In this document: positions 12,442-61,055 of the stretch, in pieces
How the letters are laid out: every line of letters starts with the position of its first letter
Numbering within the stretch: the stretch's first letter is position 1
DNA from: Minisyncoccota bacterium
GTDB taxonomy: Bacteria; Patescibacteriota; Minisyncoccia; Phycocordibacterales; UBA9973
Direction: 5' to 3'
NCBI GenBank assembly: GCA_035491955.1
Contig: DATJJU010000001.1
Location: forward strand, 393 to 64,392
DNA: 64,000 nucleotides
Program-made: the position numbers and the translations under genes
The notes under the pieces: model-generated
Database searches by the model: none
What the model was told of the DNA's origin: nothing
Seen by the model: only the letters and a program-made list of their open reading frames with translations

Positions 12442-13179
12442 CTAAAAAATGAGGTTGACGATAAAACGAATCAGGAGAAGCAGGACAAGGATTATGCCAA
12501 TGTAGAAAATGATAGCGCTGCCAAAAAAAGAGGCGGCGGCAGTAGCATAAATGAGGACAATGTAGTTTAGAGGATTATCGAACTTCACCGGCGGAAGGCC
12601 GTCACCAGTATTTTGCGCAGGAGTCTTGCTTGGAGTAATACCGAGTGCCAGCTTGGTTTGATCACGAAGAGCAGCATAGGCGACTGCTTGATTTAGGCGA
12701 AATGTTTCAATTTTTGAAAGCAATGGACCGAGCCAGGCAGTGAGCGTAGAAGATCCAGGAAATGATCCGGTAGTAATAACAGGAGTAACGCCTACGCCGA
12801 CACTGACCGTACCGAGTGTACCAAGAAGGGCCGGAATGCTTTTCTTATTTTTATCTACTGCGCCAGTAACACTTGCAGTGACCACAGTAGCTTTTGCTGG
12901 CATGAGCCATTTTTGTACGAGGGTCTTGGCAGATTGCGAAGCAACAAGAGCGCTCTGAGTACCGATTACACCTGCGTCGGTTTTAAACTGAACGGTGACT
13001 GTGGCATCCTGGGTTTGATTGTTATAGACCAATGCATTAAGTGTAATAGGGGCACCCGAAGCAGCATCGCTTGGAGTAAACCAGACACTGGTATTAGGAA
13101 TAGTATCTACTGCTAGAGCATGACCGTGGAAAATAACAAACGAAAAGAGTGCGATGAAGATGAGAGAAAATTTTTTCAT
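12442..13179 (-). CDS. hypothetical secreted protein with a C-terminal membrane anchor
   Basis: Signal peptide, Thr/Ser/Val-rich domain, C-terminal transmembrane helix; 245 aa. Confidence 0.5.
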   Translation of the reverse strand: MKKFSLIFIALFSFVIFHGHALAVDTIPNTSVWFTPSDAASGAPITLNALVYNNQTQDATVTVQFKTDAGVIGTQSALVASQSAKTLVQKWLMPAKATVVTASVTGAVDKNKKSIPALLGTLGTVSVGVGVTPVITTGSFPGSSTLTAWLGPLLSKIETFRLNQAVAYAALRDQTKLALGITPSKTPAQNTGDGLPPVKFDNPLNYIVLIYATAAASFFGSAIIFYIGIILVLLLLIRFIVNLIF

Positions 13180-13180
13180 A

Positions 13181-13909
13181 TTATCGTAATGAGAATGAGG
13201 CTTTTACAGTTTCTGTAATTTGCTTTTCTACCTGAGAGGTATCATAGCTGCCATAGTCAGATACATCAGTAGAGTTCAAGGACTGAACCTGTACTACCCC
13301 ACTATTAGCACTCATCAATGTGCCCACTCTTCGTCCTGAACTCTTTGCCAGCTCCGCCACACGAGCTTTCGCATCGGCAATAGCCTGAGAAAGAAGCTTG
13401 ATGCGGGCATCAGCCAGTTTTGAATAGTAGTATTCCAGAGAGTTTGTTGAGAAGATTACGCCTTTATCAATAAGAGCAGACGCGTGATTCGCAGCGTCAG
13501 TAATCTTTTGAACATCACCGGACTGAATGGTAAATGTTTGATTGAGCGTATAAATTTTTTCTGCAGCCTGGTTTTGCTGATACTGCTCATTCATAGAAAT
13601 AGGAGAAATAGTAAGCTCGCTATCGGTAATACCTTGATCCTTCAGGAAGGATTTTGTCGCAACCAGATCAGATGCCATTTGAGCATAGCCGTTCTTAAGA
13701 CTACTTGCTGTAACAGTACGGGCGGTCTGAGCCGTCCACTTTGCCTGGTCAGAAGTTACTTCCATCTTTGCAGATCCAGTAACTGTTACAACATCGTTCT
13801 GAGCGCGAACACGAAAAACGGTGTACATGCCGATTAAAATGGCAATGATAAGACTCAGTCCCAAGATAGCGCCGAGCTTTACAAGTGGATGTTGTTTTTC
13901 CCAATACAT
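13181..13909 (-). CDS. SIMPL/DUF541-family periplasmic protein (BP26-like)
   Basis: N-terminal transmembrane helix, then a VTGSAKMEV...QTFTIQ...ADAKARVAELA pattern typical of the SIMPL domain. Confidence 0.5.
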   Translation of the reverse strand: MYWEKQHPLVKLGAILGLSLIIAILIGMYTVFRVRAQNDVVTVTGSAKMEVTSDQAKWTAQTARTVTASSLKNGYAQMASDLVATKSFLKDQGITDSELTISPISMNEQYQQNQAAEKIYTLNQTFTIQSGDVQKITDAANHASALIDKGVIFSTNSLEYYYSKLADARIKLLSQAIADAKARVAELAKSSGRRVGTLMSANSGVVQVQSLNSTDVSDYGSYDTSQVEKQITETVKASFSLR

Positions 13910-13927
13910 ATCACAAGTATATACTGT

Positions 13928-14188
13928 TTATTTTTTGATAGCACCTTCTTTTATCAACAATGCACGCTTGGCCTCAGAACCACCGCGATTGTAGTTGCCG
14001 ATGCTGCCGTCTGAACGGAGCACGCGATGACATGGCACAGTCGGATCATAGTTCTGTCGCATATAGGTACCGACAGCGCGAGCGGCCTTGGCATTCCCTG
14101 CCTTCTTTGCTACTTCGCCATAGGTCATAGTCTTGCCTTTTGGGATGTTGCGTACCACATCAAGGACTTTTTCTTTGAAGGTTTTCAT
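13928..14188 (-). CDS. MGMT-family DNA-binding domain protein (O6-alkylguanine alkyltransferase C-terminal domain only, active-site PCHRV present)
   Basis: HTH followed by PCHRVLRSDGSIGNY; there is no N-terminal MGMT domain. Start moved to MKTFKEK. Confidence 0.75.
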   Translation of the reverse strand: MKTFKEKVLDVVRNIPKGKTMTYGEVAKKAGNAKAARAVGTYMRQNYDPTVPCHRVLRSDGSIGNYNRGGSEAKRALLIKEGAIKK

Positions 14189-14264
14189 GGATATAAGTAT
14201 ACCGCACAAAGCAAAAAGCGTTTTTCCCTTTGGGAAAAACGCTTCATATATAATTTACTATTAT

Positions 14265-14786
14265 TTATTTAAGAAAAGCATACCAAACGCTGTCATGGAT
14301 AAAGAGACCCTGCATACGGACATATGACCCTCGATCACGACCCCGCCACCAGGCATAGCATGCTTCACCGCAACCATCGATCAGACAACCTGTTGTCTCA
14401 ACAACTTCTACCTTTGTTCGATCCAGCCTACGGTTAAGATCGGGGTACTGCCGACCGAGAGCAAATAATGCATGCGGTACTGTCTTGCGCAGTTTGTTTT
14501 GTAAACCCCATTCTAATGCTTTTTTGTAGCCATAACTAATATCCGACCAATTGAACAAGACGATGGTTTCTTGTACTACACTTTCTTGCGGCATAGCATA
14601 TTGATCGGCAAACATGCGGGCATTGTACGACAGCCGCATCTGATTGCTGGCATCCATAGCAGCCTCCTCAAATGGTTTGATGTAGTTCACTTCCAAGGGA
14701 AGCATGCGAACCCGGCCATCAACTTTCTTAGCATTAGCTTGTAGGTCGTTAAACCACACATAAATATCATCTTCTAAAAGTTCCAT
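14265..14786 (-). CDS. hypothetical protein
   Basis: 173-aa ORF with no recognisable motif. Confidence 0.45.
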   Translation of the reverse strand: MELLEDDIYVWFNDLQANAKKVDGRVRMLPLEVNYIKPFEEAAMDASNQMRLSYNARMFADQYAMPQESVVQETIVLFNWSDISYGYKKALEWGLQNKLRKTVPHALFALGRQYPDLNRRLDRTKVEVVETTGCLIDGCGEACYAWWRGRDRGSYVRMQGLFIHDSVWYAFLK

Positions 14787-14870
14787 AGTGATTTTTTTCG
14801 TACAATAAAAGAAAATGGGTTGTTTGTCAATAAGAAAAAGATTTGTCCATACATGGACGCTGTTAAATTG

Positions 14871-14928
14871 GGGTCCACAAGAAAAATCCCTCCATTATTT
14901 CTAACAGAGGGATTTTTCTTGTGGACCC
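14871..14928. repeat. perfect 22-bp inverted repeat (GGGTCCACAAGAAAAATCCCTC / GAGGGATTTTTCTTGTGGACCC, 14-nt loop) whose distal arm contains the last 7 nt of tRNA-Ala
   Basis: Read directly from the sequence: arms at 14871-14892 and 14907-14928. Confidence 0.85.
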
Positions 14929-14994
14929 TAGGAGATTCGAACTCCTGACCTCCTCTTTGCAAAAGAGGCGCTCTACCAACTAAGCTAAGGGCCC
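14922..14994 (-). tRNA. tRNA-Ala (anticodon UGC)
   Basis: Hand-folded cloverleaf with a G3:U70 pair, anticodon loop UUUGCAA and TPsiC loop TTCGAAT. CCA is not encoded. Confidence 0.9.
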
Positions 14995-15081
14995 AATATT
15001 CAAGTACAAGTGATTTTACTATATATCTGTTTTTTTGCAATTACCGACCATTGTTGTGTAATGGGTGGGGTCTGACCCCAT

Positions 15082-15666
15082 TTATTTAAACTCAAAAAGT
15101 TTATCGCGGAAGTCTTCGATACGACCCTTCTTATCTAGCTGTATTCCCTCCTTTTTATAGAGCGCACGACGCTTGGCTTCGTGTGTACTATCAAACCAGG
15201 CTCGGCCATCAGAGTAGACGATGCGATGAAATGGAATATTCTTCTCCCCTGCTTTGTAGGCTTTGCCGAGAATACCGGTAATACTACGAGACGCCATTGA
15301 ACCACCGCCAGCTGCTCGTGCAATCAGTCCGTACGTTGTAACTTTTCCGGCAGGCACCATGAGCGCCAATTCCACAACACGATCGCTGAATGTTTTCATC
15401 GCAGCAGTATGGTTATTTGATGTATTTTTCATAAGTATTGTTTTTTGTTCTCGCGTAAGCTTTTTTAATTCTGCCTCACGGCTAAGGGCATGTCCTCGAT
15501 CTTTGTGTACTTCATTATATTTCATAATGACCGGCCTGCGAATTTTAGTATACCGAGCACCAGACTTCAGATAGTTATGACTATGGAGGCGTTTCTCTAA
15601 GTCGTTCGTTGAGCCAATATAATACGAGCCATCAGCACATTCCAAAATATACACGTAATACTTCAT
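15082..15666 (-). CDS. fusion protein: N-terminal GIY-YIG nuclease domain (UPF0213/YhbQ-like) plus C-terminal alkyltransferase-like (ATL/MGMT DNA-binding) domain with PFHRIV in place of PCHRV
   Basis: N-terminus reads YYVYILECADGSYYIGSTNDLEKRLHSH; C-terminus reads VPAGKVTTYGLIA...NIPFHRIVYSDG. Start moved to MKYYVY. Confidence 0.75.
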   Translation of the reverse strand: MKYYVYILECADGSYYIGSTNDLEKRLHSHNYLKSGARYTKIRRPVIMKYNEVHKDRGHALSREAELKKLTREQKTILMKNTSNNHTAAMKTFSDRVVELALMVPAGKVTTYGLIARAAGGGSMASRSITGILGKAYKAGEKNIPFHRIVYSDGRAWFDSTHEAKRRALYKKEGIQLDKKGRIEDFRDKLFEFK

Positions 15667-15667
15667 A

Positions 15668-16171
15668 CTACAATACTCTGCTATCGTAGGCCCAATGTAA
15701 TAATGCCTGGCGCTGTTTTGGTCGACATGTCTCTTGCCCACGACGACAATTATTCCTAATTTGCCCTACATGACGAGTCATCATTTTCCACCGCTTAATT
15801 TGTCTTTCATCCTCTTGAGGGATGCGTCGTCCCATATAATAGCGACAATACCATTGAAACCATCCTCGCGGATCATCTTTGTATATCCAGCCGTTCTTTC
15901 GCCAGACAGAAAGCGGTTGCGAAGCATTGACCCCAAAATAGTTCAGTTCTGCATCGTGGCGTTCGTGGCAGAGCTTGGCTTTGGTAAACCAGTCTTTAGG
16001 AAATTCTTCGCGGCAATCGGTCATATACTTGCCGCCAAAAACTCCGAGTTCGAGTATTTCCTTTGGTGTCAGATCGGGCTTGAAGTCAGGGGCAAAATTT
16101 TTCCCTATGGGTTCAATACAATCATAGCTATAGTCTTGTTGCATTAGGTCATTGACTACAACTGTTTTCAT
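15668..16171 (-). CDS. hypothetical Cys/Trp-rich protein (unknown family)
   Basis: About 167 aa from MKTVVV. Conserved-looking segment NYFGVNASQPLSVWRKNGWI...DPRGWFQWYCRYYMGRR. The track ORF extends to a TTG at 16228. Confidence 0.5.
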   Translation of the reverse strand: MKTVVVNDLMQQDYSYDCIEPIGKNFAPDFKPDLTPKEILELGVFGGKYMTDCREEFPKDWFTKAKLCHERHDAELNYFGVNASQPLSVWRKNGWIYKDDPRGWFQWYCRYYMGRRIPQEDERQIKRWKMMTRHVGQIRNNCRRGQETCRPKQRQALLHWAYDSRVL

Positions 16172-16221
16172 GCAACAAGTATACCATTGTAAAATGAGCT
16201 GTTTCGGGTATAATGATGACC

Positions 16222-16347
16222 ATGGCAAAACGAAGCAAAACTATCGGTATTCATCCGAAATCAAACAAATCCCACAAGACCAAAAAGCGTCTTGAGGTCA
16301 AGCGCACAATGCTTGCAGCGAAAAAGACTAGTAAAAAGAAGAAATAA
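16222..16347 (+). CDS. leaderless small hyper-basic peptide (41 aa, MAKRSKTIGIHPKSNKSHKTKKRLEVKRTMLAAKKTSKKKK)
   Basis: TTGTAA-16-TATAAT promoter with the -10 box at about 16209-16214 and the ATG about 8 nt downstream. A strong terminator follows. Too short to appear in the ORF track. Confidence 0.35.
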   Translation: MAKRSKTIGIHPKSNKSHKTKKRLEVKRTMLAAKKTSKKKK

Positions 16348-16350
16348 TAC

Positions 16351-16384
16351 AAAAGCCCCGCCAACATGTTGGCGGGGCTTTTGT
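16351..16384. terminator. bidirectional rho-independent terminator (AAAAGCCCCGCCAACATGTTGGCGGGGCTTTT)
   Basis: Perfect 10-bp GC stem flanked by an A4 run and a T4 run. Confidence 0.8.
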
Positions 16385-16442
16385 ATTATTTCTTATTTGA
16401 CTTTTCTGTAAAAAACAGTAGTTTGAAGAAAAACACATTGAG

Positions 16443-17015
16443 ATGAAATACAAATATATAGTTATTTTTCCGATTCCCGACCCTTATCTGGAGCGGATTA
16501 TAGAGATAATGGATATCATCGCTCTCTATACCGGCATTGAGCCTCCCTACAAAAGACTGGTTCCCCATATCACCTTTCACAGACCGATAGAAAATATTGA
16601 AGAAGAGGTAATAAAAGATTTTGTAAAAAGCATGGTGCTTCAAATGCGAAGAACACGCATTACGATCAGCGATCTGTTTCCTTTTGGAAAACAATACATT
16701 GTTTTCCCGGTTCATGCTACACGAGCAGTAGCAGAATTCTGGGTGGGCATAAATTATTTATTGAGCAGGCTGAAAGAATATGTTCATGGAGAATTCGATC
16801 ATGACAATACGCTTCACATCAGCGTTGCAGAGAAAACTTCTGACGTTTTTGACGAAGTGTGGCCTACTATCAAAAAGATGGTTAGCTTTGATCCGATGAA
16901 TATTCCGGTGGGCAAGATTGCTATTTACCGCAAGCCAATCGATCCAAGTGAAAATGGTAATTGGGAACTTGTCGTGCATTATCTTATTGATTGGAGAAAA
17001 ACAAAAAGCGGCTGA
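16443..17015 (+). CDS. 2H phosphoesterase superfamily protein (LigT/2'-5' RNA ligase-like)
   Basis: Two H-x-T/S-x motifs (HITFH and HISVA) at the appropriate spacing; 190 aa. Confidence 0.65.
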   Translation: MKYKYIVIFPIPDPYLERIIEIMDIIALYTGIEPPYKRLVPHITFHRPIENIEEEVIKDFVKSMVLQMRRTRITISDLFPFGKQYIVFPVHATRAVAEFWVGINYLLSRLKEYVHGEFDHDNTLHISVAEKTSDVFDEVWPTIKKMVSFDPMNIPVGKIAIYRKPIDPSENGNWELVVHYLIDWRKTKSG

Positions 17016-17036
17016 CAAATGTCAGCCGCTTTTTTA
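17008..17036. terminator. bidirectional terminator (GCGGCTGACA-aa-TGTCAGCCGC followed by T6)
   Basis: Hairpin with flanking A and T runs, between two convergent genes. Confidence 0.8.
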
Positions 17037-17044
17037 ATTTCTTA

Positions 17045-17461
17045 CTACTTCCACGCATTCAAGATCAATGCGAAGGCAATGAAGGTGACGAGTTCATTGC
17101 CGATGCCGATCCAAAACATTTTCCATGAGAGCTTCTTCGGCTTGCCGCTCCAGAGCGCTCCGCCGCCCATAACGGTAACAGTGAAGCCAAACCATACGAA
17201 GATAGCAATCTCCACTGCGCCAGCCATGCCAGCCCAGTGCAGGATCACTTGATCCAATGCCCAGGCCTGAATCAATGCGAGAACGAACTGTACGAAGTAC
17301 ATGCCCCACATTTTCTTCTTCATTTCCTCTTTGCGTTCTGGAGTCATTTCCGGAGCGCCCATAACTTCCATCTGAGCCTTGCCAAACAATGGACCATGCC
17401 AGATAGAACCAATGATCATTGCTGCAATACCGCAGACAAGGATCGCTACATAATTAACCAT
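17045..17461 (-). CDS. DUF1761 family membrane protein
   Basis: 138 aa; begins MVNYVAILVCGIAAMIIGSIWHGPLFGKAQ and has four transmembrane helices, as in DUF1761. Confidence 0.65.
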   Translation of the reverse strand: MVNYVAILVCGIAAMIIGSIWHGPLFGKAQMEVMGAPEMTPERKEEMKKKMWGMYFVQFVLALIQAWALDQVILHWAGMAGAVEIAIFVWFGFTVTVMGGGALWSGKPKKLSWKMFWIGIGNELVTFIAFALILNAWK

Positions 17462-17509
17462 AAAAAATAAATAAATACTTATAAAAACACTAACAACTTA
17501 TAGTGTAGA

Positions 17510-18295
17510 TTATTTTGCGATAAGCTCAAAGGTATTACTGGTAGCATCGCCGATTTCGAACTGATACATGCCGGATTTCAGGTATGAAGGAAATGTATAG
17601 TTGTATGAACCGGTATTGGAAACATGATACACACGATCAACAAGGCTGACGGATACGCCGACTGATTTCAACGCATCATCGATGAGAAAAATGTCGATCG
17701 GATTCTGCCCTCCTGTCCATTTCAAAGTATATGACCGCCCTACTGTGAATTTTTCACCGCCCGCCGGTACGCTGATATGTACGCTCTGCGCGCCATCTGA
17801 CGGATCACACTCTACTCGTGGATAGAGCAAAATTTCTGACTGCTTTGCTGTATCAGGCACAAGCATGCCATTCTTCGATATAAGCGGATAACGAAGCTGC
17901 TCCAGCCCTGTCTGATTGGTCTGGAATAATTCTTCTTCTTTATTCTTTGAGCCTTCAATCGTATATGAGTACACGGCATCAATAGCATTGCCCTTCACGG
18001 TACCAACAAAAGTTCCATTGTAGCCATTGGTCATATCTGGACCTTCTTGTGTGCCAGTCTTAGTGCCCGTTACTGTATTTCCATTGATAGTGATATCAAG
18101 TTTTTCATGCGTCGTATATGGCGCATCCTTGGTTGCATCATGACTATAGGTGTAGCACTGTCTGCCGTCTTGAAGCGTCAATACTGAAGGTATAGATATA
18201 GGCACAGAATTTTTCTTAAGCAAAAGCTTTTGTGCGGCAATGCTAATGCCGATAAGAACGAGTGCTATGAGTACCAGTATTTTCCATGTCTTCAT
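17510..18295 (-). CDS. hypothetical secreted protein
   Basis: Signal/anchor helix followed by a Thr/Gly-rich beta-rich sequence; 261 aa. Confidence 0.5.
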   Translation of the reverse strand: MKTWKILVLIALVLIGISIAAQKLLLKKNSVPISIPSVLTLQDGRQCYTYSHDATKDAPYTTHEKLDITINGNTVTGTKTGTQEGPDMTNGYNGTFVGTVKGNAIDAVYSYTIEGSKNKEEELFQTNQTGLEQLRYPLISKNGMLVPDTAKQSEILLYPRVECDPSDGAQSVHISVPAGGEKFTVGRSYTLKWTGGQNPIDIFLIDDALKSVGVSVSLVDRVYHVSNTGSYNYTFPSYLKSGMYQFEIGDATSNTFELIAK

Positions 18296-42957: not shown

Positions 42958-43533
42958 ATGAAAACTTTAGAAGAAATAAATACACATTGGAAAGAACACT
43001 GCACCTGCGACCTGAAAGCTACAGCGACACAGGCGGTGCCAGGCGACGGCAATCCTCACGCAGAAGTAGTATTCATCGGCGAAGCGCCGGGCAAGAACGA
43101 GGATATTGAAGGCCGTCCGTTCATAGGTGCTGCTGGCAAGTTCTTAGCGGAAATGCTTGAGAGTATTAAAATGAAGCGCGAAGATATCTATATCACCAAC
43201 GTGGTGAAATATCGCCCGCCCAACAATCGCGACCCCTTGCCTGAAGAAAAAGAAGCCTGCAAGTCCTGGCTTGATGAAGAGCTTCATGCTATTAAGCCAA
43301 AGCTCATTGTGTTCTTGGGACGGCATGCCATGGGCAACTTTTTTCCTACCGAAAAAATCTCTGCCGTTCACGGCAAACTACTGAAAAAGAAAATACCAGG
43401 CTTTCCTACCGAGTATTTTCTTCCACTCTATCACCCTGCTGCCGCTCTCTATAACGGCGGATTGCGTGAAGAGCTGATGTCTGATTTTCAAAAAATCCCT
43501 CTGGCTCTGACTAAGATTTCTTCGGCTTCTTAA
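42958..43533 (+). CDS. uracil-DNA glycosylase superfamily protein (family 4/5-like)
   Basis: GEAPG...ED..G.PF.G.AG motif, HPAA motif, and N-terminal Cys residues; 191 aa. Confidence 0.8.
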   Translation: MKTLEEINTHWKEHCTCDLKATATQAVPGDGNPHAEVVFIGEAPGKNEDIEGRPFIGAAGKFLAEMLESIKMKREDIYITNVVKYRPPNNRDPLPEEKEACKSWLDEELHAIKPKLIVFLGRHAMGNFFPTEKISAVHGKLLKKKIPGFPTEYFLPLYHPAAALYNGGLREELMSDFQKIPLALTKISSAS

Positions 43534-60506: not shown

Positions 60507-61055
60507 CTATTTCTTATACTTAAAGCAAGTCGGAGGATGGTCATTGATCATGCCCACAGCCTGCATAAAGGCGAAGCAGATTGTAGCACCGACAAAACGA
60601 AAGCCGTCTTTCTTTAATTGTTTGCTCATAATCTCGCTGATTTTGATCGCTTCTTTTTGCTGTGCATGCTTCATTGGCTTGTTGCCGACAAAATGCCAGA
60701 TATATTTGTCGAAGCTTCCCCACTGCTTTTGAACAACCATGTATGCCTTAGCGTTTTCAATGACAGCATTAATCTTCAGACGATTACGGATAATGCCTTC
60801 GTTTTTCATAAGCTGTTCTTTTTTAGCGTCGCTATATTTTACGATCTTCTTTGCGTCAAAATGATCAAAGGCTTTGCGATAGTTATCTCGCTTTTTCAAC
60901 ACGGTAATCCAGCTTAATCCTGCCTGTGCACCTTCAAGATTCAGCATTTCAAAAAGTCTTTGATCGTCATGTAGTGGTACTCCCCATTCCTTGTCGTGAT
61001 ATTCGGTATAGATCTCAGGGCTATTGCCCCAGGAGCAGCGAGGTTTAATTTTCAT
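60507..61055 (-). CDS. tag: DNA-3-methyladenine glycosylase I
   Basis: RCSWGNS...YHDKEWGVPLHDDQRLFEMLNLEGAQAGLSW with zinc ligands; 182 aa. Confidence 0.92.
   Translation of the reverse strand: MKIKPRCSWGNSPEIYTEYHDKEWGVPLHDDQRLFEMLNLEGAQAGLSWITVLKKRDNYRKAFDHFDAKKIVKYSDAKKEQLMKNEGIIRNRLKINAVIENAKAYMVVQKQWGSFDKYIWHFVGNKPMKHAQQKEAIKISEIMSKQLKKDGFRFVGATICFAFMQAVGMINDHPPTCFKYKK

Follow-up and report, generated by a model that had tools for sequence, protein, structure and literature searches.

The GIY-YIG domain at the N-terminus of UvrC cuts DNA near lesions during nucleotide excision repair (NER). Alkyltransferase-like (ATL) proteins, which bind O6-alkylguanine and flip it out but cannot remove the alkyl group, hand this base damage on to excision repair (PMC3950489), and are thought to act only through recruitment of the large UvrABC machinery. 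Another GIY-YIG nuclease, Slx1, belongs to the same family as YhbQ and is weakly active until a DNA-binding partner stimulates it (PMC7017083). Here, we describe a bacterial locus in which a small GIY-YIG domain and an ATL domain are joined in one predicted polypeptide. The locus lies in a 64,000-nucleotide stretch of DNA from a Minisyncoccota bacterium (GenBank assembly GCA_035491955.1, contig DATJJU010000001.1, positions 393 to 64,392), referred to below as the window. The block in question (window positions 13928-16228) also carries a tRNA-Ala gene, a truncated O6-alkylguanine alkyltransferase (MGMT-C), and a Cys/Trp-rich protein (CW). We favor the explanation that the block is an old, conserved chromosomal neighborhood and that the fusion protein would serve lesion-directed repair; taken as a whole, this explanation seems to us somewhat more probably right than wrong.

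The fusion consists of a GIY-YIG domain (approximately residues 1-80) followed by an ATL domain (approximately residues 90-194), with a reading frame that stays open across both. The GIY-YIG domain scores 60 bits against PF01541 (cut-off 22.6) and matches the UPF0213 structures 1YWL (EF2693, 1e-15) and 1ZG2 (BH0048, 5e-12). Residues Y6, Y16, G18, R26, H30 and E64 are invariant in an alignment of the window protein with four further fusions, two forms with adjacent genes and these two solved proteins. Judged from this alignment, the domain is of the UPF0213 (YhbQ/YazA/Slx1) type, with its predicted catalytic set intact. It shares with that family, 1YWL and 1ZG2 included, a catalytic domain of about 80 residues with the invariant Tyr, Tyr-x-Gly, Arg, His and Glu, and differs in its covalent link to a damage-recognition domain; in Slx1, by contrast, a zinc finger is present and Slx4 is required (PMC7017083).

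The best structural matches of the second domain are Schizosaccharomyces pombe Atl1 (3GVA) and the ATL of Vibrio parahaemolyticus (2KIF). In the motif PFHRIV, the Phe is aligned with the Trp of the Atl1 motif PWHR, which stands in place of the acceptor Cys, and the window protein has an Arg aligned with an Arg-containing stretch of Atl1. With these two proteins and E. coli YbaZ, the fusion has in common a single PF01035 domain, a helix-turn-helix, the aligned Arg and the replacement of the acceptor Cys; it differs in having Phe at the Trp/Cys position and in its N-terminal nuclease domain. This half is also 62-76% identical to hundreds of stand-alone ATL proteins (107-122 aa) of Patescibacteria. 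Given the missing acceptor Cys, the PF01035 half is classed as a predicted alkyltransferase-like damage sensor, a paralog of MGMT-C.

How might the two halves work together? The arrangement suggests a lesion-directed nickase. Small O6-alkyl groups would be taken off by MGMT-C through suicide transfer. O6-alkylguanines that cannot be reversed in that way would be flipped out by the ATL domain of the fusion, and the GIY-YIG domain, which has no other targeting, would thereby be brought to the lesion. It would then nick the damaged strand and open the way to excision and resynthesis, such that one polypeptide would do the job carried out by an ATL protein and UvrC in other bacteria. The proposed logic resembles that of ATL-directed NER, in which the ATL protein marks the O6-alkylguanine (PMC3950489) and the GIY-YIG domain of UvrC cuts nearby; the proposal differs in that the fusion would be a single polypeptide operating without UvrA and UvrB. 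If this is true, a natural and recurrent fusion of an ATL domain to a minimal nuclease would provide a short path from the sensing of damage to its incision, and would hint that the enigmatic YhbQ/UPF0213 nucleases depend on partners for their role.

Fusions recurring in evolution, together with pairs of overlapping genes, are a classic signature of functional coupling. In the following, L numbers denote loci of related or comparison genomes and P numbers denote homologous proteins or clusters. Both domains are found in four other clusters of fusions (P0272-P0275, 189-202 aa), and fusions fall at no fewer than four separate places in a neighbor-joining tree of the ATL domain, a weakly resolved tree computed from about 105 residues. 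The fusions of L178 and L179 adjoin neither a tRNA gene nor a CW gene. Where the GIY-YIG and ATL genes are separate, they overlap by 14 nt in L001, by 23 nt in L004 and by 4 nt in the contig of P0289. Recurrent fusion and gene overlap together suggest that the two domains are functionally coupled. The linker of the window protein (HTAAMKTFSDRVVE) resembles those of P0273 and P0274, and the idea that this similarity reflects one ancient fusion common to them was rejected, considering that stand-alone 119-aa ATL proteins have the same N-terminal extension. In the literature searched, we found no paper on a fusion of GIY-YIG and ATL domains, and nothing on the function of UPF0213. A different fusion, of ATL to a TfoX C-terminal-type domain (PF04993), is present in Patescibacteria (P0279, P0306, P0310 and P0318).

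MGMT-C aligns with residues 96-173 of human AGT only (1YFH, 1QNT), and all of its alignments to proteins of known structure begin at approximately residue 70-108 of the complete enzymes; MGMT-C has no N-terminal domain. Its likeness to the AGT/MGMT family (human AGT, E. coli Ogt and the C-terminal part of Ada) lies in the motif PCHRV and in the retained equivalents of human Tyr114, Arg128, Asn137, Cys145-His146, Tyr158 and Glu172, and its difference in the loss of that whole N-terminal domain. Because these catalytic equivalents are kept, MGMT-C is probably a direct-reversal enzyme for small adducts. Forms that likewise lack the N-terminal domain and contain the Cys also occur in L016, L052, L095, L098 and the P0289 contig, and the homologs in L001 and the P0289 contig share an MKTF start with the window protein. 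In L001 (4345-5304), the MGMT-C frame runs stop-free into the homolog of a 245-aa exported protein, giving 319 aa, and the SIMPL gene by which these two are separated in the window is missing; the joint frame may be a genuine fusion, or else the product of a deletion or assembly artifact.

The gene order ATL, tRNA-Ala and MGMT-C, followed by genes for a 245-aa protein, a 92-aa protein, PBP2, GreA and MraZ, is common to the window and its relatives. In the close relative L001, whose PBP2 is 84% identical to that of the window, the order is CW, an ICMT-like gene, GIY-YIG, ATL, tRNA-Ala, sigma-70, MGMT-C, the 245-aa homolog, a 93-aa protein, PBP2, GreA and MraZ. The P0289 contig reads DUF1761, GIY-YIG, ATL, a gap, a 162-aa unknown, an 86-aa MGMT-C, a 254-aa and a 93-aa protein, PBP2, GreA, MraZ and RsmH. 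L095 has ATL, tRNA-Ala and MGMT-C with small open reading frames (ORFs) alone in between. In L175, L176 and L177, the ATL gene lies a few kb or less from tRNA-Ala(UGC), and L177 goes on into SIMPL, a 253-aa and a 92-aa protein and PBP2; tRNA-Ala is also found near ATL in L001, L004, L006, L091 and L095. What varies among the relatives is confined to slot genes (the ORFan, sigma-70, recombinase, small ORFs, ICMT and SIMPL). The slot 3' of the tRNA holds a 173-aa ORFan in the window, sigma-70 in L001, and, in L004 and L006, a serine recombinase of 515 aa that lies against the tRNA; sigma-70 is a gap gene in L175 as well, an ICMT or zinc-finger gene stands between CW and GIY-YIG in relatives, and SIMPL is variably present. 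The ORFan matches no family in Pfam, NCBIfam, PHROGs or PADLOC and has no relative but itself among 5.8 billion clusters, and may be a lineage-specific filler of this variable slot.

The shared synteny is the decisive evidence that the repair genes and the tRNA gene are backbone, and the locus is best described as a long-standing chromosomal neighborhood of Candidatus Paceibacterota upstream of PBP2, GreA and MraZ, not as an island inserted at a tRNA. Matches of the window to a Candidatus Paceibacterota assembly bear the locus tags VL576_00090 and VL576_00110. The pairing of two PF01035 proteins around the tRNA, which had been pointed out, holds good and recurs in L001, L095 and the P0289 contig, which is more than chance; in L098 (1337-1918) an ATL and a Cys-containing MGMT-C stand in tandem.

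The fourth protein, CW, belongs to a large family. A word-indexed search returned at least 8000 significant clusters of homologs, the best 120 matches being 72-87% identical and unnamed or hypothetical, and 2669 matches came from a full scan of representatives at 50% identity. Species genomes with homologs 66-77% identical include Patescibacteria, Planctomycetota, Geomonas and other Desulfuromonadales, Bdellovibrionales, Gammaproteobacteria, Acidobacteriota, Omnitrophota, Xanthobacteraceae, Nitrospira and a Woesearchaeota assembly. On rhizobial plasmids and chromids there are 50 matching records, with 64-68% identity among those listed, and CW is present in cultured Rhizobium, Sinorhizobium and Geomonas; the family is genetically tractable in rhizobia. 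Homologs in a liverwort and a green alga have long, charged (Lys/Arg-rich) N-terminal extensions. A CW domain also occurs inside a 1696-aa STAND NTPase protein (P0206) and fused to DUF5872 in P0174 and P0239; P0245 (395 aa) has a methyltransferase-motif-like N-terminal region without a Pfam match. A search of BFVD with CW produced one unnamed homolog.

Fifteen large phage genomes encode CW. Among the loci are those of YerA41 (L171, 3989-4522), Carin-5 (L172, 3992-4525) and pVa-21 (L173, 4001-4417), two of these phages having hypermodified thymidine. A link between CW and the hypermodified-thymidine phages (YerA41 and Carin-5) was considered and set aside, as it concerns one phage lineage only and leaves the bacterial distribution unexplained. 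In YerA41, where GenBank labels the protein "structural protein", the gene lies between ribonucleotide reductase and the genes for a RimK-like ATP-grasp protein and dUTPase; in pVa-21 it adjoins thymidylate synthase.

CW has no match in Pfam, NCBIfam, PHROG or PADLOC, nor among the sequences of the Protein Data Bank (PDB), profile search included. A set of 35 diverse members gave no Pfam match at E<=1, Pyr_excise included, which leaves the suggestion of a glycosylase unsupported; nor does CW match an unrelated metabolic family, and it remains uncharacterized. The AlphaFold model built from a 60-sequence alignment is very confident (pLDDT 95.9, pTM 0.91, with agreement of all five models), and a Foldseek search of the PDB with this model found no neighbor (best match E=9.9). 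Invariant residues are P36, P58, N77, D100, W107, R115, D121, Q124, R127, Q155 and W160. A Cys4 metal cluster was dropped as a candidate, since the cysteines are not conserved in divergent members. Being widespread, with a very confident model that has no PDB neighbor and with no Pfam entry, CW is among the more striking unannotated families.

The stop codon of CW lies 1 nt ahead of the ATG of the fusion gene, a spacing that argues for co-transcription of the two genes in the window, but the operon link between CW and GIY-YIG-ATL looks specific to this Paceibacteria clade (the window, L001 and L004). Across 79 genomes, the 77 tightly linked same-strand neighbors of CW include MsrA (5) and TspO (4), with thioredoxin/DsbA, glyoxalase, PAP2 and PEMT/DUF1295 seen twice each, and no repair family recurs among them. 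On R. etli plasmid p42e (L170, 3713-5504), CW ends an operon of fasciclin, DUF378, TspO and CW in which TspO and CW overlap by 4 nt, and CW, TspO and DUF378 form a recurring module. A Saccharibacteria genome (L008, 4282-5930) has the order DUF378, cupin, CW and TspO. The literature searched contained nothing on a link between TspO and DUF378 or on the accession numbers of CW homologs. Because the family-wide context consists of TspO, MsrA/B, thiol-redox and membrane methyltransferase-like genes, our best guess for CW is a general role in stress damage; its connection to repair is weak.

If small GIY-YIG genes frequently settle beside tRNA genes, does the fusion reflect a repair function at all? 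The GIY-YIG gene could be a selfish, homing-endonuclease-like minigene that landed upstream of an ATL gene and was fused to it by loss of a stop codon, with no dedicated repair role. The precedent is phage T4 SegB, a GIY-YIG homing endonuclease encoded inside a tRNA cluster (PMC2330249); the window gene is like such freestanding enzymes in its proximity to a tRNA gene, shared strand and patchy presence, and unlike them in belonging to UPF0213 and lacking a homing-type DNA-binding domain. Among 58 non-redundant homologous GIY-YIG minigenes, 17 lie within 100 nt of a tRNA gene, as against 17 of 613 control ORFs, and all 17 are on the strand of the tRNA, with 11 tRNA types represented (examples among L099-L169 are L126 5926-6701, L133 5920-6204, L166 280-587 and L154-L157). 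Tandem or multiple copies occur in L004, L126, L127, L151 and L169, and the site upstream of ATL shows a presence/absence polymorphism, with GIY-YIG there in the window, L001, L004 and the P0289 contig and absent from L090-L098 and L175-L177. Small UPF0213-type genes are thus possibly mobile, tRNA-linked minigenes. However, the recurring ATL fusions include two that are not near any tRNA gene, three lineages retain the overlap of GIY-YIG with ATL amid changing neighbors, and the stand-alone minigenes consist of the catalytic domain only (approximately 70-85 aa), lacking the DNA-binding domain of characterized homing enzymes. Since the fusions away from tRNA genes argue against it, we regard the minigene explanation as unlikely, if well worth weighing. 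Even so, several points count against lesion-directed repair by the fusion, besides the weak resolution of the ATL tree. Fusions account for only about 5 of the 725 ATL relatives, and most ATL loci, including those without GIY-YIG just listed, have no GIY-YIG neighbor, so that coupling of the two domains is a minority state. The small GIY-YIG genes behave as tRNA-associated elements that come and go, and their juxtaposition with ATL could be opportunistic. The NCBI annotation at the fusion gene consists of a 116-aa MGMT-family protein only (P0271). As for the accompanying MGMT-C, human AGT is inactive when reduced to its C-terminal domain, and the activity of the 86-aa protein is therefore not assured.

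The original prediction took the 2.3-kb block for an accessory repair locus, possibly acquired at the tRNA. The first half of that description stands, in that a real cluster of alkylguanine-recognition proteins flanks tRNA-Ala and the fusion is real; the second half does not. The GC content is 0.40-0.47 across 8-22 kb of the window; MGMT-C, the ORFan, the fusion, CW and the adjacent SIMPL gene have GC and GC3 values with |z| <= 1.6 relative to the 69 genes of the window, and the codon-usage distances of the block genes are within approximately 1.4 standard deviations of the mean for genes of similar length. A Pfam scan of proteins encoded within and next to the block (12442-18295) revealed neither an integrase nor any other recombinase, and a search for repeats of the tRNA 3' end turned up an inverted copy but no direct one. 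The variable slot 3' of the tRNA, with the ORFan in the window and the serine recombinase in L004 and L006, does fit horizontal acquisition, and the identity of about 70% between CW proteins of different phyla suggests horizontal transfer of that gene over a long timescale. Yet the relatives have the repair genes that flank the tRNA in common with the window, which largely refutes the island as a whole, and we give it next to no credence. A further alternative assigns to CW itself a function in DNA repair or nucleotide sanitizing alongside ATL and MGMT, perhaps as a new glycosylase or a damaged-nucleotide hydrolase. CW abuts the fusion gene here and is the first gene of that operon in L001 and L004 too, it adjoins UvdE in an Omnitrophota genome, its phage neighbors include ribonucleotide reductase and dUTPase in YerA41 and thymidylate synthase in pVa-21, and the plant and algal homologs carry the basic extensions described above. 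The recurring neighbors across the family are MsrA and TspO, however, and not repair genes, and CW resembles no glycosylase or other Pfam family and no PDB fold, which makes a repair enzyme very unlikely.

A bolder joint reading would make the GIY-YIG-ATL protein a self-contained, lesion-specific incision enzyme that carries out single-polypeptide excision of O6-alkylguanine in small-genome bacteria, and would make CW the founder of a new-fold enzyme family, spread over bacteria, a Woesearchaeota assembly, green plants and algae, and large phages, that acts on a universal form of stress damage. Action on such universal damage would explain the identity of CW across phyla. We consider the two propositions quite unlikely to hold jointly.

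Table 1. Predicted features of the block and repair genes elsewhere in the window (window coordinates)
Feature	Position	Strand	Support
MGMT-C, 86 aa, PCHRV	13928..14188 (ORF 13928-14209, likely start ATG 14188)	-	PF01035 E=7e-30; TIGR00589 1e-23
Intrinsic terminator 3' of 173-aa ORF	14215..14245	-	14-bp stem + T-run; -19.5 kcal/mol, z=-5.6
ORFan, 173 aa, between tRNA and MGMT-C	14265..14786	-	variable slot 3' of tRNA-Ala
Promoter-like TTGACA-17-TATTGT of the 173-aa ORFan	14830-14802	-	promoter scan
27-bp hairpin, 5' arm = 3' end of tRNA-Ala	14871..14928	-	-46.5 kcal/mol, z=-10
tRNA-Ala(UGC)	14921..14994	-	ARAGORN; Rfam RF00005, 71.5 bits
Promoter-like TTGCAA-16-TAAAAT of tRNA-Ala	15013..15040	-	promoter scan
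GIY-YIG + ATL fusion, 194 aa, PFHRIV	15082..15666 (ORF 15082-15741, likely ATG 15666)	-	PF01541 3e-16; PF01035 4.5e-12
CW protein (Cys/Trp-rich), 167 aa	15668..16171	-	heads transcription order of block
64-nt palindrome, bidirectional intrinsic terminator upstream of block	16335..16398	.	-43.5 kcal/mol, z=-11
UDG-superfamily gene	42958-43533	+	PF03167 1e-35
tag gene	60507-61055	-	PF03352 1e-74

All genes of the block are on the minus strand and the block is coding throughout, with a transcription order of CW, the fusion, the promoter-like site, tRNA-Ala, the hairpin, the 173-aa ORF and MGMT-C. The inventory given in the original prediction was confirmed: the MGMT protein with PCHRV and a C-terminal domain only, the tRNA-Ala gene, the fusion as one continuous ORF, the 167-aa protein of no known family with its quoted motifs, the tag and UDG genes further along the window, and the unusual palindromes. 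The 173-aa ORFan comes in addition to that inventory.

The palindromes are of two kinds. Those at 16335-16398 and 14215-14245 are ordinary, though long, intrinsic terminators. The near-perfect stem at 14871-14928, one arm of which is in part the last 8 or so nucleotides of tRNA-Ala (to 14921), would compete with the acceptor stem of the tRNA in the primary transcript. This hairpin is peculiar to the window, and L001 and L095 show ordinary terminators after the tRNA instead; the promoter-like motif of tRNA-Ala is at the same position in L001, L004 and L095. In an Rfam scan the tRNA was the sole accepted match, and the sub-threshold matches to leaders and miRNAs correspond to terminator hairpins. 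A reading of the locus as a defense system was dropped, as PADLOC gave no matches.

Several minor observations concern the surroundings of the block. Immediately next to tRNA-Ala or tRNA-Gln in L004 (8037-9595), L006 (2801-4359) and L176 (124-1793) are genes for large serine recombinases (515-552 aa), which suggests that these tRNA genes are integration sites in this lineage. Divergent from CW is a strongly basic ORF of 41-44 aa (MAKRSKTIGIHPKS...KKKK; window 16213-16347, plus strand) without a Pfam match, whose position is kept in L004 (5818-5940) and L006 (582-800). Beyond it, a LigT/2H-phosphoesterase-like gene (window 16443-17015, plus strand) has a weak match to PF13563, and such a gene recurs adjoining or near ATL in several relatives (for example, L176 3174-3722 and L177 4508-4966).

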